Of a stretch of 64,000 nucleotides of DNA, positions 28,245 through 44,211 are shown in pieces. The notes under the pieces were generated by a model that ran no database searches, had not been told where the DNA came from, and saw only the letters and a program-made list of their open reading frames with translations. The stretch is from an uncultured Acidobacteriota bacterium. Lineage in GTDB: Bacteria; Actinomycetota; Acidimicrobiia; Spongiisociales; ZC4RG35. Numbering within the stretch: the stretch's first letter is position 1; each line of letters begins with the position of its first letter. The translations under genes and the position numbers were made by a program. The stretch is taken from positions 98,798-162,797 of the forward strand of contig CAVRHE010000011.1 in NCBI GenBank assembly GCA_963720925.1, written 5' to 3'.

Positions 28245-28522
28245 GTTCAACCTCCACTGATTCCCGACGCGAACCGGTGAAGGATATTTAGTCGAGAGGC
28301 CCGGGGCAAAGGGAGCTTCCAGACCCGAGATGATGCTGTTAGACACCACGCCGACGTGTCCCGACGCATTAACATCATGGTTCTTGCCGTGCTTCGTCGC
28401 CGTCGGCGTGTCCGGCATCTCCGAGACCGGCATGGGCCGCATCCGAAGACCTCGGGCCGTTCATCGACGACGACGGGCATCCTGGCGAGCCCTATCTCGA
28501 ATGGCTCGCCGGGCTGGGGGCG

Positions 28523-29734
28523 GTGCAGGGGTGCAACCCGCCGCGCAACGATCGCATCTGCCCGGATCGGGTGCTCAACCGGGTGGAGGCGGCGAAGATC
28601 TTGGTGAGAGTCGGGGTCCGCGTCGGGACCATTCCCCCGCCTGGATCCGCACCGGATCGGTTCGTCGACGACGAAGGGATATGGGGAGGTGCCGCCGAGA
28701 GACTGGCCAATCACCTCGCGGCACTCGGGATCGTCGACGGCTGTGACCCACCGACCAATCGCCATTTCTGTCCGTTCGCCCCGCTCAAACGAGGGCATGT
28801 CGCCAAGATCGTGGTGCGGACGCTCGATCTCGACGCCCCGCCCGGATACCGGTCGCCGTGGGACGACACCTCGAGCCGGTTCTACGACGGCGTTGCCCGG
28901 ATCGCCGCATACCGCGGCATGTGGGACGCCAGTGCAGGACGGTTCGCCGGGGAGACGCCGGTGACACGCGCCGAGTTCGCCTGGGTGTTGGCCGCCGCCC
29001 TCGACGTTCGTCACTGGCCCACCGATCCGTTTCGGGCGTCCCGTGTGGAGTCACTAGCCAGCCGGTTCCCGCAACAGTCCTTCACCGCCTACGTCTTCGA
29101 CACCCGCTCAGGTTGTGCCTTCTGGATGAGCCCTGCGCAACGGCTTCGCACGGCCTCGGTTTTCAAGGTCATGGTGATGGCCGGGACGTTGCTCGAGGCA
29201 CAAGTGAGAGAGCGTGCGCCGACCGCATGGGAAATGGGGCAGATGACACCCATGATCACCGAGTCCGCCGACGATCCGGTCCGCTCCCTGTGGCGGTCCT
29301 TTGGCGGATCACCCTGGTATCGGCGGCAGACGCGGATCTTCGGTCTCTCCGACACCGTGGCGGTGGGCGACAGGGAGAGCGGCTGGGGTCGCACCACGAC
29401 GTCCGCCAAGGATCAGGGAGACCTGATCAGACAGGTGTTGCTCGGCCACTGGGGCCCCCTCGACCTCACACATCGGGCGGTGGCATGGGAGTTGATGACC
29501 TCGGTGGTCCCGTCACAGACCTGGGGGATCACCAGCGGGGTCCCGAGTGGGTGGACGGTGGCCCAGAAGAACGGCTTCGCCGGAGGGGTTGCCAACTCCG
29601 TAGGGTTCGTCGAGGACCCCGATGGTGGGGGGTATGTGATCGTGGTGCTGTCCAATGGCTGGCCGACCTGGAGTCGGGGCGTGGCCGTCGTGGAGGAGAT
29701 CGCCGGCTGGGTGTCGTCGGTGCTGGCAGGCTGA
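28523..29734 (+). CDS. Secreted protein with SLH-like 'GCNPP' repeats at the N-terminus and a class-A beta-lactamase-like serine-hydrolase domain at the C-terminus. The N-terminus is probably incomplete.
   Basis: Repeats GCNPPRNDRICPDRVLNRVEAAKILVRV and FVDDEGIWGGAAERLANHLAALGIVDGCDPPTNRHFCPFAPLKRGHVAKIVVRTL follow the SLH pattern (F-x-D…W…I…L…GI…G…F-P…TR). The hydrolase part has S-x-x-K (SVFKV) and K-N-G in place of KTG (AQKNGFAGG). In-frame upstream sequence (DLGPFIDDDGHPGEPYLEWLAGLGAV) continues the repeat but has no start codon or signal peptide, which suggests a 5' frameshift. Confidence 0.6.
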   Translation: MQGCNPPRNDRICPDRVLNRVEAAKILVRVGVRVGTIPPPGSAPDRFVDDEGIWGGAAERLANHLAALGIVDGCDPPTNRHFCPFAPLKRGHVAKIVVRTLDLDAPPGYRSPWDDTSSRFYDGVARIAAYRGMWDASAGRFAGETPVTRAEFAWVLAAALDVRHWPTDPFRASRVESLASRFPQQSFTAYVFDTRSGCAFWMSPAQRLRTASVFKVMVMAGTLLEAQVRERAPTAWEMGQMTPMITESADDPVRSLWRSFGGSPWYRRQTRIFGLSDTVAVGDRESGWGRTTTSAKDQGDLIRQVLLGHWGPLDLTHRAVAWELMTSVVPSQTWGITSGVPSGWTVAQKNGFAGGVANSVGFVEDPDGGGYVIVVLSNGWPTWSRGVAVVEEIAGWVSSVLAG

Positions 29735-29764
29735 GCGGATTGGTCCCCCGGGCCTGAACGGCGC

Positions 29765-33535: not shown

Positions 33536-36148
<2,613 letters not shown>

Positions 36149-36152
36149 GAGC

Positions 36153-36181
36153 AACTGATCCGTTGGGCAGGTGTCCTCGAC
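36153..36181 (+). repeat. 29-bp direct repeat, copy 1 (AACTGATCCGTTGGGCAGGTGTCCTCGAC), immediately after the clpB stop.
   Basis: 28 of 29 positions match copy 2 at 38621-38649. Both copies begin right after a TAG. Confidence 0.8.
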
Positions 36182-36358
36182 GCGATGGCCGATTCGGGGG
36201 TAGTGCGGCAATGTTGGTACGGTGGGGGCTCAAGCGGCCTCGGTGCCAGTCCTTCGTTTTCTCGCAGAGCTCAATGATGCGGCTCTCCGTCGCCGGCGAT
36301 CGCTGTGGCTCAAGTACAGCCGACGCATTCACCGGTCGTTCACGTCACGGAGATCTGT

Positions 36359-37555
36359 ATGAAACAAAGCCAAGCCATCCTTCCGTCGATCGGACTGGTC
36401 AGCACCTATCCACCGACAGTCTGCGGTCTCGCCACCTTCACCGCCGCTTTGCGCGGGGCGATGGCAGAGGAGCGCGGATCGGAAGAGGGTCTCGAGGTCT
36501 TGAGTCTGGGGGACGGCCGCCTCGAGGGATCCCGACCCGAAGTAACATTTCAGCACGTCAACGGTGATCCATACTCGTTGCGGCAGGCGGTTCGAATCCT
36601 GAACCGCCACGACGTCGTCTTCTTCCAACATGAGTACGGGATCTATGGCGGGCCTGACGGCGCTGAGATACTCGACTTCATCTCCGACCTGGAAGTCCCG
36701 ACCATCGTCACGCTGCACACCGTGCTGGACAAGCCGACACTGCGACAGAAGCGGATTCTGGAGAGGATTGTCGACCTTGCGGGGCAGACGGTCGTGATGA
36801 GCCACACAGCCCTGCGCCGATTGCGGGACAGGTACGACGTCGACTCCGACAGAGTGACGATGGTTCCTCACGGGGCGAGTCCCGGACTGGCCGTTCCGGG
36901 AGCTGGCACCGGGCCGCGACCGGTCGCCCTGACCTGGGGTTTGATCGGGCCGGGCAAAGGCCTGGAGACTGCTCTAGACGCCTTCGCCGCCGTGAAAGAC
37001 CTGGAGCCGCTTCCCCGCTACGTGATCCTCGGCAAGACCCACCCCAAGGTGCAGGCCGCCCAAGGAGATTCATATCTGGATGGGCTGAAGGCGAAGGCGC
37101 ACGCTCTGGGTCTGGAAGATGTTGTCGAGTTCGACAGCCGTTACCTGGATACCGATTCCCTTTCTGCCGAGATCCGACGGGCCGATGTCGTCCTTCTTCC
37201 CTACGAGTCGACGGAACAAGTCACATCCGGTGTGTTGGTCGAGGCCCTCGCCGCCGGGAAGCCGGTGGTTGCCACGGACTTCCCCCACGCGGTCGAGATG
37301 CTCGGCACCGGTGCCGGCGCCCTCGTCCCCCACTCCGATCCCGATGCGATGGCGACCGCCTTGCGCGGAGTCTTCGCGGAGCCCGGGGTGGCATCTCGTA
37401 TGGCGACTATCGCAACCTCGATCGGCTCGACCCTCCACTGGCCGGTGGTGGCGGACCGATATGAGTCGATCGCGGGGGACCTCGTCGATCGCAGGTCTCT
37501 GGTGGATGAGTTCCCCTCGGGCCGGCGGGCTGTCGCTCTGGCCAAGGTCGGATGA
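36359..37555 (+). CDS. Glycosyltransferase family 4 (GT-B fold, 'group 1')
   Basis: MKQSQAILPSIGLVSTYPPTVCGLATFTAAL...the C-terminal donor-binding motif is ESTEQVTSGVLVEALAAGKPVVATDFPHAVEML. The stop overlaps the next gene (ATGA). Confidence 0.8.
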   Translation: MKQSQAILPSIGLVSTYPPTVCGLATFTAALRGAMAEERGSEEGLEVLSLGDGRLEGSRPEVTFQHVNGDPYSLRQAVRILNRHDVVFFQHEYGIYGGPDGAEILDFISDLEVPTIVTLHTVLDKPTLRQKRILERIVDLAGQTVVMSHTALRRLRDRYDVDSDRVTMVPHGASPGLAVPGAGTGPRPVALTWGLIGPGKGLETALDAFAAVKDLEPLPRYVILGKTHPKVQAAQGDSYLDGLKAKAHALGLEDVVEFDSRYLDTDSLSAEIRRADVVLLPYESTEQVTSGVLVEALAAGKPVVATDFPHAVEMLGTGAGALVPHSDPDAMATALRGVFAEPGVASRMATIATSIGSTLHWPVVADRYESIAGDLVDRRSLVDEFPSGRRAVALAKVG

Positions 37556-38614
37556 AGTCGACCATGGATCGGTCGTCGCTTTGGGCCGACCCTGACATCC
37601 TGGCCACAATCGACGACCTCCCTGAACCGCGTTTTCATCACCTGCTTCGCATGACCGACCACGTGGGCCTCTGGGAGCATGCCCGGTATACGACGCCCAG
37701 GCCCGAGCATGGCTATTGCACCGATGACAACGCCCGCGCCCTCATAGTGATGTGCCGTGAACCAGGCCCGTCTGTCGAACTGGTCGGACTGTCTCGGATG
37801 TATTTCCGGTTCGTGGTGGAATCCGCCCTCCCCGAGGGCGGGTTCCACAACAGGCGGGGAGCGGACGAATCGTGGGCCGACGAGATCGGCTCCGACGACT
37901 CGCAGGGTCGAGCCATCTGGGCTCTGGGCACTGCTGCCCGGCGGGCACCCGAGAAGTGGATGCGTCGTGCCGCACTCGAGCTCTTTCAGCAGCAGGAGAG
38001 CTTTGCGTCTCGCTCGCCGCGGGCCAACGCCTTCGCGATTCTGGGTGCCTCCGAGGTGTTGAGCGAGGACCCGGCACACACCATGGCCAGCAGGGCAATG
38101 GCCAAATGGGCCGGGCAACTCCATGTTCTCGATGACCGGGAATGGCCTTGGCCCGAGAGACGGCTTGCCTACGACAATGCCCGCATCCCGGAGGCGCTCA
38201 TCGCGGCCGGGGCGGCCTTCGGCCACGACCAACTCGTCGCAGCCGGCCTTGGCCTACTCGGATGGCTGGTGACAATCGAAACCTGCGACGACCACTACAG
38301 CTTCACGCCGGTCGGGGGCTGGGCCCGGGGTGAGCACAGGCCCGGCTACGACCAGCAACCGGTTGAGACGGCGGCGATGGCCGATGCATGCGCTCGAGCC
38401 TGGGAGCTCACCGGCGACGACAAATGGAGAGAAGGGGTGCTGACCGCCGGCGCGTTGGTTGGTCGGAGGAAACGACGGCAAGACCATTCTCTACGACTTC
38501 GAAACCGGCGGATGCTGTGACGGCCTGACCGTCAGCGGGCCCAATCTGAACCAGGGTGCCGAGTCGACGCTCTCCGCCTTGAGCACCCTCCAGCAAGCTC
38601 GAAGGGTCGTTTAG
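37552..38614 (+). pseudogene. GT4-associated (alpha/alpha)6-barrel glycosidase-like protein of uncertain family, with one frameshift near 38450.
   Basis: The body (LLRMTDHVGLWEHARYTTPRPEHGYCTDDNARALIV...) is in one frame. The C-terminus (WLVGGNDGKTILYDFETGGCCDGLTVSGPNLNQGAESTLSALSTLQQARRVV*) is in another. The family call is tentative. Confidence 0.45.
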
Positions 38615-40559
38615 CCGCTGAACTGATCCGTTGGGCAGTTGTCCTCGACCGAGTACTCCTCGCCCGAGCGCCGGTAGGAATACAGGCAGTCAGCCGCGCC
38701 GACCTGGACCTCGAGAGTGAAGACGTCTTCCTCCCAGTCGTACGAACCCTCCCCGGTGAGGGTCAGCCCGTCCATGAAGGCGCATTCCTCGAAGATGAAA
38801 CCGTCGGTCTCGTCCTGGGCGGTGAAGGTGATCACCCCACCCTGGTTGCAACCCACCGGCATGTCGCTGACGGTGTCCCACCAGTAGTACTCGGGCATGT
38901 AGAAGATCTCGAATTCGACCGAGTCGAACATGGTCTCTGCGCTGTCGAACTCATCCACGGTGAGGGGGAGCAGCGAGATGTAGTAACCGACGACGTCTCC
39001 CTCGCATTCGGACTCCTCCGGTGCGGTGCCTTCCACGATGAAGCTGGTTACGGCGTCGTCCGGGCATTCGTTGCCCCGTCCGAAGATGACATGAGGCCCG
39101 CCTTGCTTGCTGATCAAATACCCTTCCTCGAGACGTTCAGCGACGTCTACTCCCTGCTGATGCGGAGTGGCCGGATCGGCGGTCGCGCCCAGCACCACCG
39201 TGGGTACGCCGGGGGCGGCAAGAGGCGCCGGACGGGTCGGATCGTCGCTTGCCGTGGGCCAGAAAGCACAGGGCAGATCACCAAAGAACACGGCTCCCAG
39301 ACGGGCGGGGTCCATATCGGCGCCGGCGGTGAAGAACGCCTGCGCGGTCTCTTCCGGCGTCGACCCCGGGTAGTGGTAATCGAGACATTCGACCGCGTAG
39401 TAGATGGCATCCGAATAGGTCGGGTCTTCGATCGCTGTCTCGGTCTCCGCGTCGATCCCGACGTTCAGGTAGAGGAGCCTGAGAAGGGGCACCAGGTCAC
39501 CCCGTCCACTTTGGGCAGCCAGCGCTCGAAGGAACATCATCCGATCGTCCTCCGAGTACATCTGGCCGCTGGCCACGACCTCGAGGTCCCCGAGGCCGAA
39601 GGTGCGCTCCTCGAACCCGCCGGTGGCCAAGGGGTACGGAGCGGTCAGCGGGCCTTCGACCAACAGGGCGAGCAGCTGGTCGTACGCCTGGTCGGGGGAC
39701 ACGCCGAGATCCGCTGCGCAGAACTCGTCCTCGGCGCAGTAGTCCAGCGTCGACTGGAGCGTGGCCCCGAAGGCCGTTGCCTGCTCCTGAAAGAAGTCGA
39801 GGCCCTCCAGGGTGAGATCGACCGTTCCGTCGAGGACCATTCGGGCGACGCGTTCGCTGGTGGGCGTCCGCATAGGTCTGGGAAAGCTGGGTGCCGTAGC
39901 TCTCCCCGTACAGGACGATCTGGTCATACCCAAAGGTCTCGCGGAACACCTCGAGATCCTCGGCTGCCTGGTCGGTGCCCAGGTAGGGGAGAATCGCCGG
40001 ATTGCCCATCTCGGAGACACAGCCCTCCGAGAAGGTGGATGCGGCCGCAGTCAGCGCTTCCTGATCGAAGCCGAGACCCGTCGTCGCGTCCACCCGGTAG
40101 TAGTCCGCCGCCGCCTGCGGGCAGCTCAGGCCACCCGACATCGCGACCCCGCGCTGGTCGAAGAAGACGATGTCGTACGACTCCGGTATCGCCGGGTCCA
40201 GGGCATCGGTATAAGAATCGGCGGCCGCGATGCCCGGAGCTGCCGGGGCCTCCGGTTGCGGTGACGAACGCCCCGAGGCTGTCCCCGGTGGCGGGGAGCA
40301 CGGCGAAGGTCACCGGGATGGTTCTCTCGTCGGCTGGATCGAAGTGATTCATCGGCATGTCGAGCGTCACACAGGTGAACACCGAGTCGGGGCAGAGGCT
40401 GGCGTCTAGATCCTCCATGAGTTGACCGGTGCTCGGGCGCTCCGTCGTGGTGGTCGGGCCGGCAGTGGTCGTTTGCGGCGGTTCTGTGGTCCGGTTCCCC
40501 CCGTCGGTGGTGCACGCTGCGAGCAGCAACAACACCCCTACCTGACACCACCTCCGCAT
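38611..40559 (-). pseudogene. Secreted S33-family alpha/beta-hydrolase (tripeptidyl aminopeptidase-like) lipoprotein with a Cys-rich C-terminal extension. It has two frameshifts, near 40260 and near 39850.
   Basis: Lipoprotein signal (VGVLLLLAACTT). FVTATGGPGSS, then in a second frame GIAAADSYTDALDPAIPESYDIVFFDQRG...with the nucleophile elbow YGESYGTQL. The third frame carries the rest plus about 130 aa containing 8 Cys. Confidence 0.7.
38621..38649 (+). repeat. 29-bp direct repeat, copy 2 (AACTGATCCGTTGGGCAGTTGTCCTCGAC). On the minus strand it encodes the last 10 codons of the peptidase gene (VEDNCPTDQF).
   Basis: See copy 1. The two copies bracket the GT4 plus glycosidase-like gene pair. 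Confidence 0.8.
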
Positions 40560-40584
40560 TGGCGGCATCGTACGCCGCATATTC

Positions 40585-42055
40585 GTGGCGTCGGGCATAC
40601 TCCGGCGGTTGCCACAGCTCCTCGCTCGGTCCCTCGTCTTCATCACATCTGCCGCGGTTCTAATCCTGGAGATCCTGGCCGGGCGGCTGCTCGCGCCCTA
40701 CCTGGGGGTGAGCCTCGAGGTATTCACCGGCATCATCGGTGTGATCCTTGCCGGGATTTCCGTCGGGGCGTGGGCCGGCGGGCGGGCGGCGGATCGTGGA
40801 GACCCCCGTCGCCTCATCGGGCCTCTCCTCGTCGCCGGCGGCCTGACTGCGGTGGCGTCGCCACTGCTGGTCGACCTGGCCGGCCCGGCGGCCTCGACCG
40901 GGCCTGTTTCGATCGTCGGCCTCAGCCTCATCGGGTTCTTCGCCCCGGCAGCGATCCTGTCGGCGATTCCACCCATCGTGGTGAAGATCAGATTGGCCTC
41001 GTTGCAGGAGACGGGTTCTGTGGTCGGGACGTACTCCGCCATTGGGACCGCGGGAGCCATCTTCGGCACTTTCGTGACCGGGTTCGTGCTGATCGCCGCC
41101 TTTCCCACGAGGCCGATCGTGATCGTGGTGGGATTTGTGCTCGTGCTGCTCGGGGTGGCGGTATGGGTCGGGCGCAGCGCCTGGACCGTGACCGGCTCAC
41201 ATTGTTTCGCTGCTCCTCCTCAGCGGTTTGACCCTCGGATTCGACGGCCCCTGCCAGTACGAGACCAGCTATCACTGCGCCGAAGTAGTGGCCGACACCG
41301 GGCGACCCTCGGGAAGGCTCCTGGTCTTGGACCGCGGCCACAACAGTTACGTCGATCTCGACGACCCCACTCATCTCGAGTTTCGCTACATACGGGTGAT
41401 GGCCGACCTGATAGACGTGGAGATGCCGCCGGGCCCTCTAAACGTCGTTTCGATCGGTGGCGGAGGGTTCACGTTGCCCGGCTACCTGGCCGCCACGCGG
41501 CCAGGCACCGACCACCGCGTCCTCGAGATCGACGCGTCCTTGGTGGAGATCGGCCGACGCCACCTCGGGTTCGAAGACGAAGCCGAGGTGATCATCGACG
41601 ACGCCCGGAGATCGATCACGCAGATTGCTCCTGGCTCGGTCGATGTCGCCGTGGGCGACGCCTTCACCGGCCTCACCGTTCCCTGGCATCTGACCACGGT
41701 GGAGTTCGTCGAGATGATCGGTGACACCCTGGCTCCCGGCGGCTTGTACACGGTCAATGTGATCGACCGGCCCGAGGCGAGGTTCGCCCGAGCGGAGGCG
41801 GCGACTCTCAGCGAGGTCTTCGACCATGTGGCGGTGTTCGCTCCAGAGGGCTACTTCACCGGCGCCCGCGGCGGCAACTACGTCCTCGTCGGGTCGGATG
41901 ACCCGATCGACATGGATCGCGTCCGGGAGACGCTCCTTTCCAGAGGGGGTGTCGAAATCGGTCTGGCCGGCGATGAGCTGGCCCGATTCATCGACGACGC
42001 CCGTCCCTTGACCGACGACTTCGCCCCGGTCGACCAGATGCTTAGCGGTCTCTGA
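40585..42055 (+). pseudogene. Fused MFS-like membrane domain / spermidine-synthase-like methyltransferase, with one frameshift near 41195.
   Basis: The N-terminal half has about 7 TM helices (…AILSAIPPIVVKIRLA…). After the shift it reads SLLLLSGLTLGFDGPCQYETSYHCAEVVADTGRPSGRLLVLDRGHNSYVDLDDPTHLEFRYI...VVSIGGGGFTLPGYL...VGDAF, which is the SpeE-like AdoMet fold. Confidence 0.7.
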
Positions 42056-42703: not shown

Positions 42704-42725
42704 GGTCATCGCCGCCGCTCGCAGC

Positions 42726-44211
42726 TCAGGACTGACGCGCCCGCCCGGAATCGGGATCGATGATCAAGGACGACACGTCGACGGCTTGGAATGCCGATCC
42801 GGGGATCTCCTTCAACTCTCGCAGCATGTCGTTGTCCCATCTGGGATCGGGGCTGCCGGATATGTACCAGGACGAGCCGTTGTCGGCGAGGATGATCCCG
42901 TACTCCTTGAAGGCCCGCAGAATCACCTGCACCTGTGCGGAGAAACCCGAGATGTCGAATTGGGACGACAGGCGAAACCTCTGCCCCATGGGCGGCAAAG
43001 CGACGCTGGACGAGTCGGAGGCGTCGTGTCGGGCGGGCCAGACGTGCGCCGACTCTCGTCAGTGGCGCTGTGAATCTGATCGCGTGATCGATGTGCCCGG
43101 AGAGGACTTCGTCGTAACGGACGAGGCCGGGGAAGATCGGCAGTCCGGCGGCATCTGCTGAGGTCCAGCCGTCCGGGCGTAATCGAGATGAATCGAGTTG
43201 ATATCGGGCACCGGACGCGGCTTGCCACGACGATCCAAGCCCTGGGTGGGCATCGAACAATTCGAAGAGCTCGCATCGATAACGGTCGACGACGATGACA
43301 TGACGATCACCCGACGAATCGGCCCCCCCTTCGATCGGGGCGCCGGCAGGGATCGGGAATGGTCCAGGGTCGGACTCGGCGCCGTACGCGGTATACGTGA
43401 CGGGCACGGCTGGGGTGCCGGCCTGCGCTTCGATGTAGGGGATGCCAATGGGGCTATTGGACCCCGGCGGCCACACACCTGAGCCAAAGTCGGGGTGGAG
43501 ATGGGCCGAGGCCCCGATCGATGACACGTATTGAGCCGATCGTGCATGCACCGGCAGACCATCGATCCGGGTGTTCCAGATGTCGTCCGCAGGCAGGGTG
43601 GGGCATCGTGCCGGTGGTCGGTTTGGGGTGAGGTGGGTGGCTCGGGTGAGGAGGGTGGCCATCTGGTCTCGTCTGATCGGGTCGTCGGGGCAGAACCGGG
43701 TGTTGGCCGGCGGGTTGCAGCCGATGGTCACTCCGGCGGCAGCGATCTTTTGGATTGCTTGTTCGAAGAGGTGGCCGTTGTCGTCGGTGAACCGGTCGTG
43801 GTTGGACACCGGATAGTTGAAGGCTCTGGCCAGCATGGCGGCCATCTCTCCCCGGGTCATGTTCCGTTCCGGGCAGAACCGGTTGTTGGCCGGGGGGTTG
43901 CAGCCCTGGGTTATCCCGGCGGCGCGGAGACGGTTGATCCCAGCTTCGAATGTGCTGGCTTCGTCGTCGACGAAATAGTCGTTGGGGGTGGAGCCGAGAT
44001 CGAGGGCTCGGGCCAGGAACACTGCCATTTGGCCACGGGTGACGGTCCGATCTGGACAGAAGCGATCATTGACCGGCGGGTTGCACCCACGGGTGATGCC
44101 CTCGGCGGCGATGGCCTCGATGCCCCCCTCGTGGACATTCCCATCGTCATCGACAAACGAGCCTCCAGGAGGAAGCACCGCCAGGAACACCGCCAACAAC
44201 AGCGCATGCAC
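42726..44211 (-). pseudogene. Secreted protein with three SLH-like 'GCNPP' repeats and an uncharacterised C-terminal domain of about 330 aa. It has one frameshift near 43052.
   Basis: Signal-like N-terminus (VHALLLAVFLAVL). Three repeats of the form FVDDDGNVHEGGIEAIAAEGITRGCNPPVNDRFCPDRTVTRGQMAVFLARAL. The C-terminal domain continues in another frame (…SAHVWPARHDASDSSSVALPPMGQRFRLSSQFDISGFSAQVQVILRAFKEYGIILADNGSSWYISG…). Confidence 0.55.

Follow-up and report, generated by a model that had tools for sequence, protein, structure and literature searches.

How does the end of one gene come to stand a second time behind the end of another? The question is raised by a locus in a 64-kb stretch of contig CAVRHE010000011.1 from an uncultured acidimicrobial bacterium (the window, whose numbering is used for all positions), where a two-gene cassette, made up of a GT4-family glycosyltransferase gene and a second gene for an (alpha/alpha)6-barrel protein, lies between clpB and a convergent TAP-like peptidase gene and is bracketed by the 29-nt direct repeat AACTGATCCGTTGGGCAG[G/T]TGTCCTCGAC. 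The left copy (copy 1, 36153-36181) lies just beyond clpB and the right copy (copy 2, 38621-38649) within the 3' end of the peptidase gene. A preliminary description of the locus had reported this pair, and we find the copies 28/29 identical and the only two matches with up to three mismatches in the 64 kb, against an expectation of 0.00 from 100 shuffles; it had also correctly stated that only the GT4 gene, the second gene, and their leader lie between them. It had read the arrangement as the footprint of an element that had entered a gene at its 3' end; of that reading the bracketing of the cassette by a duplicated gene end stands, whereas the attL/attR mechanism is not supported. Comparison with related loci (L001-L049) leads us to propose that copy 1 is probably an orphaned peptidase 3' end, left by recombination between an empty and a cassette-bearing allele through one non-homologous joint.

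The two copies differ in status. Copy 2 encodes the peptide VEDNCPTDQF on the minus strand, as first described, and since the reading frame ends in ...DQFSG*, these are codons -12 to -3 of the peptidase rather than its last ten. The stops of the peptidase and second cassette genes do overlap by 4 nt (TTAG, 38611-38614), and the same place reads CTAG in relatives, with clpB or the second cassette gene upstream. Copy 1, which is non-coding, begins 4 nt past the clpB TAG, not directly after it; each copy sits 4-6 nt 3' of a TAG stop on the plus strand. On the minus strand, copy 1 reads VEDTCPTDQ and continues antisense into clpB without meeting a stop, so that it cannot act as a gene end; nor, with an in-frame stop absent after it, can its left flank restore the peptidase frame. 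RNA folding of both copies on both strands gave z-scores of -1.24 to +1.14, no different from shuffles, while a promoter and terminator scan returned nothing at the repeats and no terminator-like site. A search of 36000-38800 against Rfam found no family, the sole match in the window being a weak one to mraW elsewhere (20.9 bits; gathering score 50). With no RNA structure, no terminator, and no stop for the peptidase frame, copy 1 is non-functional and unconstrained.

A genome scan with the C-terminal part of the peptidase yielded 21 loci, all in metagenome-assembled genomes (MAGs) of Acidimicrobiia type, and L023-L049 were obtained by exact-protein look-ups for the peptidase's 90% cluster and for homologues of the second cassette gene; the relatives are soil Acidimicrobiia MAGs. 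The same kind of look-up with the window's own ClpB and GT4 proteins found no record, and a metagenome scan with a lineage-specific 26-mer returned one short contig, which ends before clpB. Trees of clpB, GT4, and the peptidase join the window with L001 and L039, then with clade Y (represented by L023 and L033), then with clade X (L002-L008 and L020), and further out with L009, the L010 clade, and deeper lineages. L040-L042 and L046/47 were placed in the window's group on the basis of their sequence identity and their junctions, and clade Y was taken to include L024-L038, whose junction sequences are identical; we refer to the window, L001, L039-L042, and L046/47 together as the window superlineage. 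The order clpB-GT4-barrel gene recurs in nearly all loci (in L018 we detect GT4 and no barrel gene), the cassette always adjoins clpB, even at 65% peptidase identity, and in the deeper outgroup loci additional genes separate the second cassette gene from the peptidase gene. At the position of copy 2, a recognizable single copy (up to seven mismatches) is found in 13 of the 21 genome loci, the peptidase 3' ends of the remainder being more diverged in the junction alignment.

The preliminary description had predicted an empty site, with clpB followed directly by the peptidase gene, and five loci have exactly this arrangement (L003, L005, L012, L013, and L015): the two genes converge with overlapping CTAG stops. 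The long empty-site loci that we compared (L003, L005, and L013) are collinear with the window over more than 6 kb on each side, and in L003 and L005 a single junction of 40-43 nt aligns to both 36144-36183 and 38612-38651. Judged against these relatives, the duplicated stretch is about 40 nt and thus longer than 29 nt. Empty alleles sit in at least two clades, clade X and the L010 clade, and their stops overlap in the same way in each. We rejected the possibility that empty and occupied sites are paralogous loci, the flanks being syntenic and the L006 and L015 contigs coming from different clades. Those two contigs belong to one MAG, JALDXP01 (MCT-CON-03), which thereby holds both an occupied locus of clade X type (L006) and an empty one of L010-clade type (L015), most likely as a mixed bin of two populations.

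Furthermore, the sequence left of the cassette in the window superlineage is that of such an empty junction. The window's clpB tail has the length found in empty-site relatives (ENPA* and ENPV*), whereas the repeat-less occupied loci of clades X and Y and of L010 have a tail extended by 9 aa, with TGA as its stop; in L009 the tail is short (ENP*). The window, L046, and empty alleles share an equal clpB tail, its TAG, a spacer of 4-7 nt (6 in the empty allele), and then (A/C)(A/C)CTGATCC, and all relic alleles have in common with the empty junction a stop position two codons after EN, the spacer, and the peptidase tail. Given this shared tail length, spacer, and register of the peptidase tail, the relic is the empty-site junction itself and not merely a 29-mer. 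Over its last 100-300 nt, the window's clpB resembles the empty-site genomes no more closely than over the remainder of its length, and there is therefore no signal of imported clpB sequence.

Near-intact copies of the left repeat occur only in the window, L001, and L039-L041, and any recognizable left relic is limited to the window superlineage, most occupied relatives, including the sister clades, being without it. Within the superlineage, the L042 spacer resembles peptidase 3' ends with z = 5.8-12, a score that none of 300 shuffles reaches. In Smith-Waterman comparisons with peptidase 3' ends, the spacers of clade X, clade Y, L009, and L010 score no better than shuffles; against the relic alleles, repeat-less spacers are marginal only, the scores of L002 and L020 against L046 being reached by 2-5 of 500 shuffles. 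Where present, the relic drifts: close strains differ in it by indels and substitutions, and it has three diverged alleles. In the window's own allele, a spacer reduced to GAGC (a 2-nt deletion and two substitutions relative to CCGCTG) stands beside a core that is 28/29 intact. Position 19 of this core carries the G of the L046 relic, while positions 1-18 are those of the living end of the gene, down to a synonymous T at position 12 that is specific to the lineage; part at least of the core is therefore recent. This unevenness would be accounted for by a later, short gene conversion from copy 2. In L042, clpB encodes 874 aa, as its former TAG has mutated to GAG and the frame reads through to a TGA inside the CTGATCC of the relic; such read-through might model the origin of the longer clpB tails in repeat-less relatives.

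The cassette alleles are themselves mosaic. The window and L042 are 98-100% identical except over 36140-37388, where identity falls to 68-88%, and the window and L001 are 96-98% identical except over 37388-38186 (68-90%), with sharp breaks at about 36140, 37388, and 38186. The 5' half of the D-type GT4 gene is just 70-77% identical to every other sampled type, which places its source in an unsampled lineage. The D-type allele is phylogenetically incongruent, yet it replaces an allele at the same locus, and these identity tracts therefore indicate that homologous recombination has swapped cassette alleles between lineages piece by piece. Such exchange can be traced among lineages with a marker formed by the relic and the clpB tail length.

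We therefore propose a model in which the empty allele has clpB and the peptidase gene convergent with overlapping stops, and in which an empty and a cassette-bearing allele recombined by one homologous exchange, in either the peptidase gene or clpB, and by a second joint that would have been non-homologous, just to the right of the relic near 36181-36186. The recipient may have been an empty or an occupied chromosome. The product would be the hybrid of the window lineage, with an empty-type left junction (short clpB tail, TAG, spacer, and peptidase tail), the cassette, and the real peptidase 3' end, and so with about 40 nt of junction on both sides of the cassette. The relic would then have drifted, and in the allele of the window and L001 a short conversion tract probably recopied the initial 18-29 nt of the core from the gene end. 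We favor an event at the base of the window superlineage over an older one that placed the cassette.

Several observations weigh against this model. The joint falls between 36181 and about 36198, and the microhomology there is weak, the candidates GACGC and CTCG..CGG being ambiguous. A single young event does not predict a spacer degraded from CCGCTG to GAGC beside 29 nt that differ at one base, and an extra step, by gene conversion or a complex indel, is therefore needed. Empty alleles were found only in clade X and the L010 clade, and none in the window superlineage itself. Because the tree of the N-type GT4 alleles is congruent with the flanks, loss and regain of the cassette is indistinguishable from import of an empty-type clpB end. 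Finally, L009 shows a faint in-register similarity (TAGCCG...GGGC..TTG), which, together with the marginal scores of L002 and L020 against L046, leaves room for a much older origin.

Such an origin would have the duplication arise when the cassette was first placed, in the common ancestor of L009, L010, clades X and Y, and the window superlineage, after which the left copy decayed in most lineages and was repeatedly refreshed by gene conversion in the window superlineage, the empty sites being retained pre-insertion alleles or clean deletions between the copies. We consider this single ancient insertion unlikely, while acknowledging what speaks for it: the CTAG overlap of the second cassette gene equals that of clpB in empty alleles, as if the target duplicate began there; the clpB TGA of repeat-less loci lies inside CTGA(T/C)C and aligns with the relic's CTGATCC, L042 providing an example of the read-through required; L009 has its ENP* TAG CCG in register; L002 and L020 score marginally against the L046 relic; and deeper outgroups carry extra genes before the peptidase gene. 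Nevertheless, the spacers of clades X and Y match peptidase 3' ends only at chance level and the marginal scores fail multiple testing, while uniform decay cannot yield about 70% identity in L042 and L046, 97% in the window, and nothing in the sister clades unless conversion is added ad hoc; the lineage-specific T also makes at least part of the window's core recent. Alternatively, without any part played by an empty allele, repair or a template switch near the clpB stop of an ordinary occupied ancestor could have brought into the spacer some 30-40 nt of the peptidase 3' end, which lies 2.4 kb off. The distance from the FEN codons of clpB to the leader is nearly constant (95 nt in the window, 93-96 nt in most relatives without the repeat, and 85 nt in L009) and suggests replacement rather than net insertion, and short identities in some repeat-less spacers (CTGATC and GCGAT) might have primed such a switch. 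We nonetheless judge local ectopic copying quite improbable, for it predicts neither a clpB tail exactly as short as in empty alleles nor the recurrence, in three diverged alleles, of TAG, a 6-nt spacer, and the peptidase tail in empty-junction register, and the copied tract would need to take in the stop region of the peptidase.

The proposal that the 29-mers are attL and attR of an integrative element, or of a cassette moved in trans, that entered the peptidase 3' end draws its appeal from direct repeats (29 nt, or about 40 nt relative to the empty site) that bracket precisely two genes, and from orthologous empty sites with one core copy in all five empty loci, with the same stop geometry in at least two clades. 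An att pair should also leave both copies at every occupied site, however, and clades X and Y, L009, and L010 carry the GT4 pair without a detectable left copy, the very arrangement that the preliminary description had named as incompatible with its reading and one that largely refutes it. The absence of an integrase, which that description had noted, extends further: no integrase, excisionase, or transposase was found in or near the cassette, and no recombinase Pfam family in the cassette or in the genes within about 6 kb on either side at the orthologous loci, the rest of the 64-kb window not having been scanned protein by protein. GC content is the same inside the cassette as in its flanks (0.60-0.67 and 0.61-0.68) and thus native; the whole cassette has no match in plasmid and phage collections; the tree of the N-type GT4 alleles agrees with that of the peptidase; and the cassette stays at its one locus beside clpB. 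Nor are there signs of a transposon or insertion sequence, with no inverted repeat at the cassette ends, no transposase, and a duplication of about 40 nt as opposed to 2-14 bp. Moreover, copy 1 decays freely, and the peptidase stop would be lost if the two present copies were to recombine. These repeat-less orthologues, native composition, congruent trees, and missing recombinases make a remnant element or a cassette moved in trans very unlikely, and the cassette is better described as old and mostly vertically inherited, polymorphic for presence and absence, with alleles shuffled by homologous recombination and without an integrase or att site. An unlinked and unrecognized site-specific system that uses the peptidase tail as its site, and so repeatedly gains and loses the cassette precisely at the overlapping stops, seems scarcely probable; were it real, the window's repeats would be true attL and attR and the empty sites of the two clades clean excisions. 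Least credible of all, to the point of being negligible, is that copy 1 is a functional motif (a terminator, a small RNA, or a protein-binding site), a chance match, or an assembly artefact: the shared placement of both copies 4-6 nt 3' of a plus-strand TAG could hint at a motif, but copy 1 is not conserved among close strains and gives no folding, terminator, or Rfam signal, no chance match is expected, and independent assemblies agree. The artefact was rejected on the strength of L001 and L039-L041, which share the arrangement, and of L042 and L046/47, which have diverged forms of it.

Table 1. Features of the clpB-peptidase locus in window coordinates, with the relic and empty-site junctions of relatives
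Feature	Position	Strand	Description
clpB, 870 aa	33536-36148	+	Open reading frame; Pfam AAA_2, ClpB_D2-small, Clp_N; tail ...EFENPS*, TAG stop
Relic of clpB/peptidase empty junction	36144-36185	.	clpB TAG, degraded spacer GAGC (from CCGCTG), 29-nt core, GACGC
Copy 1, non-coding relic core	36153-36181	+	Near-intact also in L001 and L039-L041, with a 1-nt deletion and two substitutions
Spacer and GT4 leader	36186-36358	+	Spacer orthologous to that of repeat-less relatives; 17-locus alignment, RNAalifold
GT4-family glycosyltransferase gene, 398 aa	36359-37555	+	Pfam Glycos_transf_1, Glyco_trans_1_4, Glyco_transf_4
D-type allele patch in cassette	37388-38186	+	Window equals L042 and L046 here (98-100% to L042)
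Second cassette gene, (alpha/alpha)6-barrel protein, about 353 aa	37552-38614	+	Three-frame translation; frame broken at 38447
Overlapping convergent stops TTAG	38611-38614	.	Plus-strand TAG, minus-strand TAA
TAP-like alpha/beta-hydrolase (peptidase) gene	38611-40646	-	Pfam Abhydrolase_4, Abhydrolase_1; lipoprotein-like N-terminus
Copy 2, working peptidase 3' end	38621-38649	-	Encodes VEDNCPTDQF, then SG*
L046/47 relic allele			...ENSG TAG CCGATG CCCCTGATCC-TGGGCCGGTGATCCTCGAC GC...
L042 relic allele			...ENAD GAG GCGCTG ACCTGATCCAGGGCGGCGTGTGGTCCTCGAC GC...
Empty junction			...ENPA TAG CCGCTG AACTGATCCGTCGGGCAGTTGTCCTCGAC GC...

Within the cassette (Table 1), copy 1 is separated from the GT4 start by 177 nt of spacer and leader. 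Upstream of GT4, a conserved extended -10-like element, TGGTACGGT (36215-36223), precedes a leader of about 130 nt, itself conserved in 17 non-redundant loci, which extend to a peptidase identity of 65%. A CUCCG that does not vary among them (36285-36289) is a predicted anti-Shine-Dalgarno element, pairing with the Shine-Dalgarno sequence CGGAG (36348-36352). Compensatory changes affect only 3 of the 22 predicted pairs, the minimum free energy z-score is 0.11, and the leader has no Rfam family; it may be regarded as a candidate for translational control in the manner of a riboswitch or thermometer.

Searches with the GT4 protein against NCBIfam and the PDB gave generic GT4 matches and no specific function. 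The second cassette protein matches no Pfam and no NCBIfam family, and the AlphaFold model of a 90%-identical homologue (predicted local distance difference test score 87.8) has its best PDB matches, in order, in YPO2471 (7tem), sugar 2-epimerases, and GH9 enzymes. The gene had been called glycosidase-like; because the (alpha/alpha)6-barrel fold is nearest to YPO2471 and the sugar 2-epimerases/isomerases, a glycosidase is only one possibility. The family is large (3280 proteins at E <= 1e-40 among the candidates scored), and some sources label it as a glycosyltransferase. What the cassette does, with its GT4 and barrel proteins, its conserved leader, and its place beside clpB, may prove the more rewarding question.

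The window carries single-base insertions at 38447 in the second cassette gene, at 39858 and 40232 in the peptidase gene, and at 41199 in the next gene, for a membrane protein. Each of the four breaks a frame and is absent from L001, L042, L044, and L023, and peptidase homologues elsewhere are intact at 648-655 aa. As the insertions are private to the window, and as L042, another long-read contig of the lineage, has many private insertions of the same kind, we treat them as probable long-read consensus errors rather than marks of pseudogenes, the genes themselves probably being intact. Among neighboring genes, one for an SLH-domain protein (501 aa, 42706-44211) is present in the window and L042 and absent from L001 and L040, its indel ends sharing the short microhomology GCGCC.GC.CCG. 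A beta-lactamase-family gene (28523-29734) lies within a 1.4-kb stretch (28308-29750) that is missing from L003, L004, L005, and L013.

How does the locus compare with known systems? Integrative elements that enter the 3' ends of genes carry a replacement gene end, as do e14 and phage 21 in the icd gene of Escherichia coli and the islands that target tRNA genes. The present locus resembles them in having a gene 3' end on both sides of the insert, an intact gene, and one-copy empty sites, and differs in its lack of an integrase, its vertical inheritance, its single locus, its native composition, and a left repeat that is mostly missing and, with its flank, unusable as a gene end. Direct repeats at the 3' end of a gene thus need not be att sites. 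The scattered empty and occupied alleles, syntenic flanks, and mosaic tracts in and around the block are those of an accessory-block presence/absence polymorphism, and the locus provides a natural example, from uncultured soil Acidimicrobiia, of a small accessory block kept polymorphic between two core genes; whereas clean homologous exchange is scarless, however, the relic here would record a non-homologous joint.

A joint of this kind belongs to homology-facilitated illegitimate recombination, which combines one homologous anchor with one non-homologous joint and so places DNA beside a conserved gene, and the literature on it also covers orphaned gene 3' regions (PMC3240628; PMC5361080). In these sources the process is described for Acinetobacter, Streptococcus pneumoniae, Pseudomonas stutzeri, and E. 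coli and proposed for type VI secretion system arrays in Vibrio (PMC3240628; PMC5361080 and refs 41, 42, and 47 therein). As with the orphaned 3' regions of Rhs, contact-dependent inhibition, and type VI secretion loci, a displaced, non-functional 3' fragment lies beside the insert, here the peptidase tail at clpB, and homologous exchange at the locus is seen, here in the mosaic alleles. In contrast, the orphan here is only about 40 nt long and not a whole module, the insert is a clade-native cassette allele and not foreign DNA, and the proposed joint, in the sequences of uncultured Acidimicrobiia MAGs, falls at no clear microhomology. In sum, the locus adds one more case to a class of recombination scars already known; it looks like the work of ordinary recombination and reveals no new mechanism.

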